DNA of 53,274 bases, from the NCBI RefSeq assembly GCF_011745625.1, contig NW_027191477.1, positions 310,001 through 363,274 on the forward strand, in the 5' to 3' direction. Source of the DNA: Cladosporium halotolerans. Lineage: Eukaryota. Position numbers and translations under genes: made by a program. Under the pieces are notes generated by a model. It was given only the letters and a program-made list of their open reading frames with translations, was not told the DNA's origin and did not search any database. Shown piece after piece: positions 30,367 to 43,104 of this stretch; positions within the stretch are counted from its first letter, which is position 1; each line of letters begins with the position of its first letter.

Positions 30367-31300
30367 ATGACCAATGGCTCGCATTACTCTGCGCAGCGCG
30401 GCGCACTGGTGATATTTGGCTCTGGACCTGGCATCGGCGTGCACGTCGCCTCTCGCTTTGCACGGGGCGGATTCGAAAAGATCGTCTTGCTGTCTCGCAA
30501 TCAGAGGAGGCTGAGTGACGACGCGTTCATCGTGTATTCGAACGCGCCGCAGGTGCAAGTCAGCACGATCACCGTGGACTTGACGGTACCGGCGGATTTA
30601 GATCGCGCTCTGCAAGAGATTGAGTATATTCTCGCTGGGACGCCGATTGAATGCGTTCATTATGGTAGGTGGTTCACTGAAGTCACATGTGTACGATTTT
30701 CTGATATCTTTGCAGTATGTCTCACTGTTCACAACGGTTCGCCAGCAGCTGAGCGAATGTTTAATCTCCGTGACAATCTCATTGTAAGCTTGAGCTTCGC
30801 GACTAACCAGATGCTTGTAGAACGCTGCAAAGACCTCAGAGACTTGGCTGCTTCGAGAATCTGCCGAAGGCCTGAGAAAGAACCTCGAGCTGTCCGTCAT
30901 CAGTCTCTACACGGTTGCTCAATGGGCAACGCCACAGCTCCTGCATCTCGCAGGCAGGCAAGAGTACAAGCCGGCGCTGCTGGTGACGAGCGGCTGGCTC
31001 GCTCATGCGCCGGAACCAAACTACTTCGCGCTGGGCGTGTGCAAATCGGCGCAGCAGAACGTCGTCGTCAGCCTGCACAACCAGCTCCGGCCGCAGGGCG
31101 TGCACTGCGCACTTGTGATGGTCAACAACCACGTGAGCGAGGACGCCAACGAGACGAATCCCTCCAACATCGCCGAAGAGAGCTGGAGGCTCTACAGTCA
31201 GCGCCCTGATTCGATGGCACTCGAGACGAACATCGACGAGCCGGCCGGCGACTTCGTGCAGGACTTCCCGTGGATTGATGGATGGGTGGATGGGGAATGA
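30367..31300 (+). CDS. Short-chain dehydrogenase/reductase-like protein
   Basis: Rossmann motif IFGSGPGIG. Exon 30367-30663 (...ECVHY) joins exon 30821-31300 (NAAKT...LLVTSG...YFALGVCKSAQ) across a complex intervening sequence at 30664-30820. Confidence 0.85.
30664..30820 (+). other. Predicted [D1,2] stwintron (intron nested in donor of another intron)
   Basis: Structure is G | GTAGGT...CTGAT...TTTGCAG (30665-30715) | TATGT...CTAAC...TAG (30820). Removing the inner intron creates a GTATGT donor. Confidence 0.75.
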
Positions 31301-38042: not shown

Positions 38043-38711
38043 GTTTGCGGAATGTCAAGAAGCTGTAGATTAGTAGTGGTTGTCGGCGACGTCGTGGTCA
38101 AGCAAAGTCTCGAAATTGCGCTGGATGCAAATGGAGGCTTTCGCTTTGGACTCGCCAAGCCTGAATTCGTGCCCACCATGAGCGTCGCACTCGCGGATGC
38201 TGCCGCTCTTCCCGCTGCCGCTGCCGTCGAGCGATTCCGATGATCAGCCGAAGCTGTTTTTGAAGACGGCCGATGATGAACAAAATTGACGGAGCCAGAC
38301 TCCGACTGCACTCAAGATTCCTGATTTGCCTGAAGCCTCACAGTCAATGCATGGGAAGAAATTGGACCTCGTCTATCTGAGCCATACGGATGACATCCCT
38401 CACGTGAGATGGACGGCCTCTCAACATCTTCAATGTTCCACAGAATACGCCGTGCGGTACAATCGTCTCTATCAAGATCAAGCGGACCAGATATTGCTTG
38501 CAGTACGGCGGATCCAATGATGTCGTCGATTGATTCCATTGACAAGCACAAGGTTCTTTCGGCGTGAAACACATATTCGTAAATCGTCTAGTTTACGGCT
38601 CCCTACCTATCCTCACACCCTCTAGCCATCACCACCCTCCTCAGCACCACTCATTCCCTCACTCCCTTACTCCCTTACTCTCCTCACCTCCCTCTCTCTA
38701 CCTCACCCAAA

Positions 38712-41228
38712 TCAAACCTTTCCCTTCTTCCCCTCAAGCGTAGTATCCATATCATAAAGCGGCTCGAGCGTAGCATCCTTGCGCTGCAGCACCCACCTCT
38801 TGAACCACCACGGCGCGGCCTTGCGCGTCTGGTACGCGATAAACTTCTTGCCGGGAACGGCGAAGATGTAGTCGAGCTCCTCTAGCGTGCGCTGCTTGGT
38901 CTCAGGCACGAAGAGGAAGATCATCACAAAGGCGCAGACGTTCAGGCCTGCATAGAAGCCGAAAGCGCCTGGGGAGGGAGGTGTGTTAGTCGGTGGGATT
39001 TGAAGGGGAGGAGAGTATAGGCGGGCTTACCGGTCGGTGTGAAAGCAGCTAGGATGGCAGGGAAAGAGATCGAGAGCACAGCGGCCCAGAACAGGCAGGT
39101 GGCGACGGCCCAGCCCATGCCGACTTCGCGGTGACTGAGCGGGAAGACTTCTGCGGAGTAGGTGAAGGGCACTGGGCCCTCGCCGGGGGAGTAGAAGGCC
39201 GCGAAGAGGTAGATGAAGAAGGCGACGAGTCCCAGGTGAGCTTTGCTCTCGTTCGGGATGTAGAAGCAGAAGCCAGCTGCGAGCAGAGTCCAGGCCATGT
39301 TCGGGAAAGTAAACAGAAGTAGCGACCTGCGGCCGAAGGTGTCGATGGTCCAGATGGCGGGCTTGGATGACTGTCAGTGGCCGTAACGGTCTGAAATTTT
39401 CAATATCATGTGCTTACCCAGGCGAAGACGAAGTTGACCAGACCAAATCCGAAGCTGGCAATCAGGGCGTTGCGTTCGCTAGCGCCCGCCTGCCTGAAGA
39501 CGGTAGAGCTGTCTGTTCACAGAAAGGTCAGCTATTGAATCTATCTCAGTGCTCTATGATGAGGAGGCTTTGAATCTCTCAAGCGTTGTGAGGTGCACGA
39601 AAAGCCCCGAAAGACGCCAGTTGACAAGGGTCATTGGGTAGCTTGTGCTGCGTCGGAACGTGGACATACTGCAAAGAGGTTAGCATTGACCGTCAATTCT
39701 AATGGTGTGAGTTTATTCGCTTACCAGAAAGCAATGATATTGATGCCGCACTGTACCAAACGGTTAGCTTCATTTCACCATGTTCCGCAGATACGAGTAA
39801 CTCACCATTTGCTGCGCAATCATGACAACGAAACTAGCCAGCGTGGCACGCCTGACGCGAGGAATGGTGAAAAGCTGGAGGAAACGAGACACGTAGTTGG
39901 TCTTGCCGACGATGCTGGCCTCAATCTGGAGCTGACAGTGAATATAGTACAGGTCGCGAGCGGCTTGAATCGGGTGGTGACGAAGGCGGAGGAGAGACTT
40001 GTATGCCTTCTGGTAACGGTTCTTCTTCATGTACCATCTGGGCGATCTGACATGGCGTGTTAGCAAGATGAGGGCTGCACTGAAAGTTTCACACCTCATT
40101 CTGGACTCACTCTGGACAAAAGTATATCCCGATCGTCAGCGGCACTGCCGGGATGAAAGCAGAACCAATCTGGAGGCGCCAGGCGATATCACCGACTTGG
40201 TAGACAGCGAGGTTTGCACAGAAGCCTAAGAAGATTCCAAAAGCCGTCCACATTTGCCAAGACATGACCAGTGCGCCTCGAATCCTTGCTGGAGAGTTCT
40301 CTGCGGCGAAGATAGGAACCGAGGAGCCCTTAAGGCCCATGCCGATGCCCATGAGAAGGCGAGTGATGAAGAGTTGTTCCCAGTTCTGGCTGACAGCACC
40401 GCCGATAGGGGTCAGAAGGCAGAAGATGGCGCTGATGAAAATTGTCTGGATGATTGTCAGACATCACTCTTGGGGAAGATGGGGCGGTCCGACTCACGCC
40501 TCGGCGACCGAAGTAGTAGTTGCAGGGGTCCGATACCCAGCAGCCGATGAAAGCACTACCTCACATCAGCAAATGAGCAGGTCTTAGTATTCCAGGCATC
40601 ATTGTCACCTTCCAATGTAGGGTCCAGCGTTGACAAGACCGACCAGCCAACTGTCGCGTACTTGGTTTGGTGCGCCTTCAGTCTCTCCTTCACCGATACC
40701 GAATTCCTGCGATGCCGTCAGATGAGGCGTGCTGGAATTGACCGTAGAGAATACATACGACAGGGAAACTGAGATTAGCACCGTTCGAACCAGTCTGGTC
40801 CCATCCTTGGACAGCGGCGCCGATTGAGCAGACGATAATGGTGAAGTAGAGCGCAAGAGGGTGCCTCCAACGATGGGCGGATTCAAAGCGCAGAGCCTCG
40901 CGCTCATCATCGGGCAGCTCGAGATTTTCGAAGTTGGTCGGGTCTTGCGCGATCAGGGCGCCTCTCTTGACAAGATCGGTGTGCTCCACAAGGCCTTTAT
41001 CGGAGCAGAAGGTCTCGACATCGTGCATAAGATCATTATACGAGATGTCCGCCAACGGGTTGGAGACTCTTAGCTTGTGGGTCAGCTGTGTGCTTGGAAA
41101 AAGAGGGTCTATTGCTTGCGCGAGGAAACTGACTTGGCGTCTAGGTTCTTGTTCAAGTTGATGTCGGCGAGAGATGAGCTGCGAACCGCATCCTCCTTCT
41201 GGATGCCGTTGGCTTCTTTCTCCGCCAT
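38712..41228 (-). CDS. MFS sugar porter (polyol/inositol/pentose transporter-like)
   Basis: Motifs [53 protein letters not shown] and [10 protein letters not shown]. Introns 41133-41069, 40758-40707, 40608-40556, 40497-40446, 40110-40047, 39805-39751, complex 39725-39513, 39417-39362 and 39030-38969. Confidence 0.92.
39513..39725 (-). other. Predicted [D1,2] stwintron
   Basis: Minus strand reads G(39725) | GTAAGC...GCTAAC...TTTGCAG (39724-39669) | TATGT...GCTGAC...CAG (39513). Two-step removal restores TTC T|AC AGC (F-Y-S). Confidence 0.85.
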
Positions 41229-43104
41229 GGTGTCTGGATAGAACAAAGATCACCTCGGCTGCTAGGATCACGAGGAATGAGGAGATACGCGAAACAATCG
41301 ACCTTACCTCGCGCGCGTGCCGCTGTATCATATATCCCTCTGACAGCTCGTCCGCGCTTTACCTTTATTGGCATCGATGGCTCAGAGACTTACTACCAAG
41401 ACCACGATCACCCACCCAGCATCGGGCGGGAAACCCCAGCATCGTTTCGGCGTGCCCATGGGGTCCTGCGTTGCGTACGCACAGGGTCGAGGCGCTTAGG
41501 TTTCGCCCTTGGCCATAGCGGTAAGCACACGACCGCGCTGAGTCTGTGACCGAAGAGGCTTGCCTTGTTATGCTTCGCTGCAGGCCAAGTGGAGGTCGTC
41601 CAAGAGGCTAAGACAATCGGCATTCCGATGGGCGAGGTGGTCCAGGCGGAGGCAAACGGCTCAAATATTGAGAGAATGCGGACATCGCCGACCGGTGCCC
41701 AACCAGCGGGGCGAGATGAAAAATAGTTTGGAGCAAATATACAAACTGTGATGCTGAAACGGTTTAGCACAGTCAGCAATACTTCTTCACAGTTCTGATG
41801 CGCTCGCCTGCGCTGTTCAGGCGATCAACCTGACCCCGCGCCAAGGTCTGGAGGTGGAGGTGCCCAGAAAACAAGCCGCTGGAGAGGTGCGGCGGCCGCG
41901 TTTCTGCTAAGGAGCGGCGAAATGAGCCTTGTCGGGAATTGGCAATCCGGACGCTGATGAAGGTGAACCCTGGCTAGGACATGTGACAGCGGCTGAGAGT
42001 GATAGTCTCCCTTCCCCACGGGCGATGAAGAGTGGAGATTCGTCTGGTCTCGACCCTATACCGGCTGGACGAAAGACCAGCCGCCGGCTTCACAAGCGTC
42101 CTAGTATCCCCAAGGACCCTCCACGGGAGAGCAGTTGCGGCTCCAGGATGGTCGCCGCGGGGCCGTTCTGGAGTTCTGGAGCAATCCAACGGGGTTGCTG
42201 AATGATGAGTCGGGGAGGCGGCCATGGTGGCTGCAAGCCACGAGTGGATGCCTCAAGCCACCGGTAATAGTGCTGGTGGACATCGCGCCCGGAAGGCGAA
42301 CCGTGCTCATGGCATCGTTACATTCGAGGTGATGTGCGTGGGCCTTGTCACCAGAACGTGGTATCGTGGTAGCCGCGTGCCGTTGAATCTGGGTAAGAAA
42401 TTCGTGTTGCTTGGTGTCTATGTTGGCGGTCTCGTTCGCAAGGAGGAAAACCCTTTGTGGGTGGCCCCTGCTCCTCTAACTGCTTCACTGATCTCTATTC
42501 ACTCACGACCAAGTGCATTGGGTCACACAGTTCTCCTTCGCATACATAGCATTTGTAGGCTGTGAGCGCCTGAGGCTGCTTTCACTTAGATTCCGCGGAA
42601 GCCGCCCAACGAGAGAGACCACAAAGTCGGCGCCGACCATAAACCCCACTTGCCTGTCGAGAGCGTGAGCTGATTGGAGCGCGGACTGCTCTAAGAACGA
42701 AGTCCCGCTTGACAACTTCAACGTTCATAGCGACGGTCCAAGGTGTAGAGAACCACACCTGTCAACACCCAGGGAACGCTTCCTGCTTTCGTGTGTGGTG
42801 CATTGAGCGGGCGAAACGCCAGAAAGAAAACACAGCATTCTCTTGATTACGTGCGGTCGTCCCCCGGTGTGGAGGCCGTTTCTCCTTTAGAGGACTTCGC
42901 ATTTCTTCAGTACTCCTTTCCATTGACTGCATTTTCATACGCATATACGCCTGGACTTCTGCATCAGATAAAGTTTTTTCTTTACACGGCGGCATTTTCC
43001 TGCGTTTTCCGGACTATTTATCGGAGATCAACATCGCGATCCAGGAGAAATCGCAAGCTTAGACGACCTACCGACACACCTTATTCACAAACCGCCTCGC
43101 CAAC

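Follow-up and report, generated by a model that had tools for sequence, protein, structure and literature searches.

A sugar-porter gene of Cladosporium halotolerans is very probably interrupted by a nested intron that is removed in two steps. The gene lies on the minus strand of a 53,274-nucleotide (nt) stretch of DNA (assembly GCF_011745625.1, contig NW_027191477.1, positions 310,001-363,274 of the forward strand), which we call the window and whose own numbering is used throughout, and the 213-nt intervening sequence in question (39725-39513) has the anatomy of a spliceosomal twin intron, or stwintron, of the [D1,2] class. The mature junction needs a cut between T 39726 and G 39725, and there is no GT donor at that point. 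According to passages of PMC9024468 and PMC12403724, a [D1,2] stwintron consists of a G, a complete U2 intron and the remainder of a donor, and this is the arrangement found here.

Anatomy of the intervening sequence

The features of the site are as follows; joints between contig blocks are written with a slash.

38712-41228, minus strand: sugar-porter gene (MFS, Pfam Sugar_tr), ATG to stop, 10 exons, 614 amino acids; RNA-supported exon joints in run X16
39806-40046, minus strand: upstream exon, C-terminal residues ...VVMIAQQM; from translation and X16 joints 40046/40111 and 39750/39806
39751-39805, minus strand: canonical 55-nt intron before the microexon, GTGAGT..GCTAAC..ACAG; from sequence and X16 joint 39750/39806 (depth 1108.9)
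39726-39750, minus strand: 25-nt microexon, which codes for CGINIIAF and supplies the initial T of a Tyr codon; from sequence and X16 record 10, positions 243-267
39725, minus strand: orphan G, G1 of the external intron's split donor; present in X15 and X1 DNA contigs, gone from X16
39669-39724, minus strand: internal intron, 56 nt, with donor GTAAGC (39724-39719), branch GCTAAC (39684-39679) and acceptor CAG (39671-39669); from sequence
39513-39668, minus strand: remainder of the external intron, 156 nt (157 with G 39725), with acceptor CAG (39515-39513); 3' end set by joint 39512/39726
39509-39511, minus strand: second CAG, 4 nt downstream, a possible acceptor unused in the RNA contig (no joint 39508/39725)
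39418-39512, minus strand: downstream exon, starting AC AGC TCT, (Y)SSTVFRQAG; X16 record 10, positions 268-362

A sequence-only reading that preceded this work had placed the microexon, orphan G, inner intron, TATGT and outer intron at these positions, and all of them were reproduced on the minus strand. The upstream exon ends ...ATTGCGCAGCAAATG at 39806, the base preceding the 39805 donor is a G, and the microexon (39750-39726) reads TGCGGCATCAATATCATTGCTTTCT. The internal intron, at 56 nt, falls inside the 52-65 nt span of the gene's eight other introns; its 3' end reads TTTGCAG and is directly adjoined by TATGTCC, so that TATGT (39668-39664) and G 39725 together spell the donor GTATGT. Fourteen AG dinucleotides occur in the 213 nt, and only the CAG ending at 39669 is followed by a T. 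The external intron carries the branch element GCTGAC at 39532-39527, followed 11 nt later by the CAG that ends at 39513 (3' terminus ...AGCTGACCTTTCTGTGAACAG, AACAG), and the downstream exon opens with ACAGCTCTACC. Fusion of 39726 to 39512 leaves the frame intact and gives ...IIAFYSSTVF..., and fusion of 39725 to 39512, as would follow from use of the canonical GT, gives AF and then a TGA stop.

The last four bases of the intervening sequence are repeated as the first four of the downstream exon (ACAG/ACAG, 39516-39509, minus strand), and this repeat creates the unused in-frame alternative acceptor. The duplication could be the mark of an insertion event.

Junctions in assembled contigs

Four public runs, all available as assembled contigs, from which rare forms are dropped, were compared with positions 38700-41250. 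The exact mature junction is observed in X16, which we take to be RNA: the joint 39512/39726, with 213 nt skipped, is found in its record 10, a contig of 931 nt that has a depth of 1108.9 and shows 0 mismatches. The skipped part has CT..CC ends on the plus strand, which is GG..AG in the coding sense, and its placement is unambiguous ('both' = 0). The mature 39726-39512 join with an apparent GG-AG intron, which had been predicted from the sequence, is thus present in an abundant contig. The same record holds the joints 38967/39030, 39361/39418 and 39750/39806, and in the X16 contigs the gene's other eight introns are also removed, all with GT..AG ends and lengths of 52-65 nt. At the fourth of these introns (40446-40500, minus strand) a minor variant with one extra G is seen (joint 40445/40500, depth 12.3) beside the main joint 40445/40498 (depth 1013.8), and it may reflect a rare alternative donor.

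The unspliced DNA sequence is likewise observed directly. X15, an independent assembly, possibly of the source reads, covers the site in one 23-kb contig (depth 33) that shows 0 differences and no indels relative to the window. X1, which comes from another study, bears another organism label and includes a related strain, shows no splice joints in its contigs; its record 4, an unspliced contig of 634 nt over 39421-40054, differs from the window by 7 substitutions and by no gap. Two of the 7 are in the external intron (39659 and 39663), outside the six donor bases, and five are in the upstream exon. Because G-GTAAGC...CAG-TATGT is present in two data sets, X15 and X1, it is real DNA. X5, an RNA metatranscriptome of a relative, contributes loose ends with the same mature sequence, a variant of the 25-nt microexon being joined to ACAGC; X5 is silent on genomic intron structure and hence on the stwintron.

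X1 also holds a second, more divergent copy of the region, which departs from the window inside the external intron at about 39522. Its loose end resembles the branch-point region and is not identical to it, which suggests a further relative with an intervening sequence at the porter site.

Mechanism and alternative explanations

From the DNA sequence and the mature junction we infer two reactions, in the following order. Splice-site pairing in these fungi is across short introns, and the spliceosome would excise the internal 56-nt U2 intron (39724-39669) first. The first ligation would join G 39725 to TATGT and thereby create the donor GTATGT. The second reaction, with branch GCTGAC and acceptor CAG 39513, would then take out the external 157-nt intron, fuse ...TTTCT to ACAGC... 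and restore the conserved ...IIAFYSSTVF... motif. Passages of PMC9024468 and PMC12403724 report such consecutive splicing, with a detectable intermediate, for [D1,2] stwintrons of other fungi.

Exact removal is required by selection, because 103 of the 120 listed homologues have Tyr at the junction codon and one has Phe; P0003, the protein deposited for this gene (below), makes up the remaining 16 together with truncated or intron-reading models. No canonical GT-AG solution gives the 39726/39512 junction. Chance does not account for the nested intron, because only 86 of 20000 interior shuffles of the 213-nt sequence recreate a complete inner intron together with the T-donor remainder, and because the published [D1,2] formula yields 0.04 hits per simulated window on both strands (4/100 first-order Markov simulations). 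A relaxed [D1,2] pattern gave 9 hits across the window, with 7.5 expected, and is uninformative.

Several observations weigh against two-step removal of a [D1,2] stwintron. The RNA nature of X16 is not on record and is deduced from the fact that all nine intervening sequences are missing from its contigs. The 39725/39668 intermediate was not seen in these contigs, where depth is 0 over 39560-39645; since rare forms would have been dropped from the contigs, this does not count against the intermediate. A protein search for the open reading frame that would be translated from the intermediate gave one candidate and nothing significant, a weak result. The published formula, a search heuristic and not a definition, does not accept the porter sequence as it stands, since the external spacer from donor to branch is 131 nt where 25-110 are allowed; all five of its motifs match, and the sequence fits once the spacer limit is widened from 110 to 131 nt. 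Finally, the external intron, at 157 nt, is about 2.4-3 times as long as the gene's eight other introns.

The mature joint alone is compatible with one step as well as with two, and together with the lack of an observed intermediate in contigs or protein search this leaves room for removal of the 213 nt in a single step as a non-canonical GG-AG intron, cut one base before GTAAGC, with the nesting incidental. We nevertheless regard this explanation as improbable. GT..AG ends are used by the transcript's eight other introns, very few shuffles (the 86 of 20000 above) produce a complete internal intron with TATGT after it, a second GG..AG sequence in the window (30664-30820, below) shares the nested anatomy, and in the published [D1,2] cases, as far as passages of PMC12403724 describe them, intermediates are reported to be detectable.

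A different possibility is a canonical 216-nt intron running from GT 39724 to CAG 39509, which would keep the frame and give a product one residue shorter (...IIAFCSTVF...). The sequence-only reading had held that simple splicing would shift the frame; this is correct for the 39725/39512 fusion with its TGA stop, but not for GT 39724 to CAG 39509, which is in frame (AFCSTVF). With this in-frame canonical intron available, the stwintron reading did not follow from sequence alone, and it took RNA evidence to decide. The sole X16 joint at the site is 39512/39726, not 39508/39725, and AFCST is found in 0 of the 120 homologues, of which 103 have Tyr. This refutes the canonical 216-nt intron as the main form and leaves it at most the place of a rare isoform; we give it almost no credence as an account of the site. 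Equally little probability attaches to the idea that the extra G 39725 arose by error in sequencing or assembly and that the intron is a plain 212-nt GT-AG one. X15 is identical to the window, and X1 keeps the same G without an indel across 39421-40054; this refutes an error, as the earlier reading had expected, barring a systematic error shared by the data sets.

Two further geometries do not fit. An [A2,3] stwintron needs a G after the last acceptor, and the base here is A. If the downstream unit (G 39669 to 39513) went first, the product of the 216-nt canonical intron would be the only outcome, and that product was not observed.

Host gene and deposited protein model

The assembled porter coding sequence is 1845 nt long, with one stop codon, which is terminal. 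Its best database match is the deposited protein P0003, 'hypothetical protein WHR41_06395 [Cladosporium halotolerans]', which agrees with the RNA-supported porter at 613 of 614 residues and matches PF00083 (Sugar_tr) with 298.4 bits (cut-off 22.3; E 1.2e-88) over profile positions 2-452 of 452. At the stwintron site P0003 has 18 inserted residues and a Tyr-to-His change: the predictor spliced out the internal intron, read some of the external intron as coding sequence and then made up a second intron. The expectation that gene predictors would mis-model this site is borne out by these 18 spurious residues.

Intron positions in related loci

We compared the site with 80 loci (L001-L080) from one metagenome scan in which the upstream exon was the query. 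Canonical intron solutions were enumerated over the 42 nt after the QQM codon, and seven unresolved loci were inspected by eye. Forty-six of the 80 loci have no intron here; some of them, L002 for example, are without introns throughout and may derive from transcripts. Twelve of the 80 carry a pair of introns, at offsets 0 and 19, and offset 19 alone is used in five; the remaining offsets are 7 (four loci), 4 (three), 5 (two) and 0 only (one). Among the seven inspected loci, canonical introns at -3 and +21 were seen in L020 and L021 and an upstream intron in L035; L039 and L061 show no intron, and in L007 and L072 the contig end is reached.

At offset 25 (T/AC), the position of the stwintron, an intron is found in none of the 78 informative loci; the window itself, enumerated as a control, gives no canonical solution. 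Seventeen loci have a canonical intron 6 nt upstream of this position, at offset 19. The 12 closest loci, with 93-95% exon identity, share the window's offset-0 intron, and in the same 12 a canonical intron of 48-57 nt lies inside an Ala codon (ATT G/GT...AG/CN TTC TAC), 6 nt upstream of the stwintron position. Among 33 named proteins tried, Cladosporium proteins are nearest to L001-L013 by summed tblastn identity, a rough measure in which overlapping high-scoring segment pairs are added together. In the window, then, the older offset-19 intron is missing, and a stwintron of identical phase lies two codons farther downstream.

Over the 45 nt after the QQM codon in L001-L080, canonical introns are found at -3, 0, 4, 5, 7, 19 and 21, depending on lineage. 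The stretch around the microexon is a local hot spot of intron-position turnover.

A second candidate in the window

The unmodified published [D1,2] formula has one more match in the window, on the plus strand at 30664, which lies in the following features.

30367-31300, plus strand: short-chain dehydrogenase gene, host of the second candidate; Pfam match of exon 1
30664-30820, plus strand: candidate [D1,2] stwintron, 157 nt, GG..AG; published formula and homology

Exon 1 of the dehydrogenase matches Pfam KR above the cut-off (E 3.9e-08) and adh_short just under it (25.4 bits, cut-off 26.6). It ends ...ECVHY at 30663 and is followed by G 30664 and by GTAGGT...TCTGAT...TTTGCAG (30665-30715, 51 nt). 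The outer part, TATGTC...ACTAAC...TAG, ends at 30820, and exon 2 begins with NAAKTSETWLL from 30821. One of the nine homologues found, P0127, reads ...ECVYYNAARVE across the junction, and in five others the matched part begins, or nearly begins, with NAA[KRQ]T. Because homologues continue across the junction, exact removal of a 157-nt GG..AG sequence is needed here too. An in-frame canonical intron from GT 30665 to CAG 30839 is a possible alternative, but it would delete NAAKTS.

The two candidates share the 15-mer TCTTTGCAGTATGTC across the junction of inner and outer introns, at 39677-39663 on the minus strand and 30707-30721 on the plus strand. By blastn this match has an E value of 0.14-0.19 in a small database, and the remainder of the two sequences cannot be aligned; the 15-mer may be due to chance plus splice consensus, or may be a trace of common origin. 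The same strict [D1,2] pattern that found the dehydrogenase candidate had one match in 287 kb of related loci, in L035, and we took it as chance because it lies past a stop codon.

Two side observations concern the dehydrogenase gene. A perfect 9-nt inverted repeat is formed by 30707-30715 (TCTTTGCAG, in the internal acceptor region) and 30825-30833 (CTGCAAAGA, in the exon past the external acceptor). The Cladosporium fusiforme homologue P0128 reads ...PVECINAAKTSE and lacks two residues before NAA relative to the window and P0127; here too an unusual intron may have led the predictor to a work-around.

Comparison with known systems and tests of origin

The closest known systems are the [D1,2] stwintrons of the Hypoxylaceae and Xylariaceae (Fekete et al.; PMC8469720, PMC9024468, PMC12403724). 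As described in passages of these papers, they have the same anatomy of G, intron, HAG, TRWGY, branch and acceptor; use of the distal sites in one step would leave a G and shift the frame, so that exact removal is needed; and automatic annotation goes wrong, as it does at the porter site. So-called 'sister' stwintrons of these families, again as far as those passages go, also resemble the porter stwintron in having gene positions not shared with relatives. Passages of PMC9024468 count 117 stwintrons in a single Hypoxylon genome and over 1500 in the Hypoxylaceae as a whole, and passages of PMC12403724 give 288 sequence-similar stwintrons in 14 Xylariales.

The host here, in contrast, is a Dothideomycete (Cladosporium-like) and not a member of the Xylariales, and the porter stwintron, with its spacing of 131 nt, differs in several further respects. 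A blastn search with word size 7 over the 53-kb window and the 80 loci for a similar stwintron copy returned self hits and the one shared 15-mer only. A search for near-terminal inverted repeats found none, the only hairpin being one of 11 nt inside the internal intron (39680-39702). The predicted fold is not unusually stable (z = +1.34; 184 of 200 shuffles reach an equal or better fold). With no copy in the window or the 80 loci, no near-terminal inverted repeats and no stable fold, the porter stwintron does not resemble the Xylariales 'sister' stwintrons or a structured introner. Origin by exon duplication was tried and rejected: in local alignment with the remaining gene sequence the outer intron scores 20 and the inner one 18, values that 121 and 95 of 200 shuffles, respectively, equal or exceed.

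Introner-like elements are known in Dothideomycetes. The porter stwintron resembles them in being lineage-specific, at a new position and longer than regular introns, but differs in that no stable structure is predicted for it and that neither the window nor the 80 loci contain another copy. In recursive splicing at the ratchet points of long animal introns, the first reaction regenerates a 5' splice site for the second. There the regenerated donor lies wholly downstream of the junction and is used in very long introns, whereas the porter donor would be split, G/TATGT, across a 56-nt intron within 213 nt.

The donor-disrupted stwintron of an Aspergillus reticulon-like gene, as a passage of PMC6616335 describes it, lies beside a small exon and an intron, and alternative pairing of splice sites can skip the exon. 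The same logic underlies the pairing of donor 39805 with acceptor 39669 that had been proposed for the porter gene as a route to skipping the microexon. The sequence permits this pairing, through which the product would lose 26 nt, but no contig supports it. Relative to the Aspergillus case as that passage presents it, the porter's small exon is upstream of the stwintron, and the skipped product would be out of frame and is seen in none of the contigs.

Significance

Stwintrons, reportedly first described in 2013, are already well documented, the [D1,2] type included, and the porter case is a genuine new RNA-verified member whose host lineage and gene position are both new. In the literature searched, supplementary stwintron tables aside, no stwintron was linked to Cladosporium; the words 'stwintron' and 'Cladosporium' occurred together in a single review, where they were unrelated.

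A further reading, which we hold tentatively and think unlikely to be right, is that the Cladosporium halotolerans lineage is actively gaining [D1,2] stwintrons at new positions, independently of Xylariales. It is suggested by the occurrence of two such elements 9 kb apart in a 53-kb window where 0.04 are expected, with 0 credible ones in 287 kb of related loci; by the 15-nt string that the two share across their inner/outer junctions; and by the porter position, which is empty in 78 of 78 informative relatives, and the absence from the window of the ancestral intron 6 nt upstream of it. Were this so, the genome would offer a second, phylogenetically distant system in which the origin and spread of nested introns could be followed.

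For the transporter itself the stwintron is most likely neutral. The practical gain is a corrected porter model, in which 18 spurious residues are removed from a conserved transporter motif. More generally, stwintrons defeat standard gene predictors, and verified cases show how 'impossible' GG..AG introns are to be read. A new position 6 nt from an older intron, with a second candidate nearby, bears on how spliceosomal introns, and nested ones especially, are gained.

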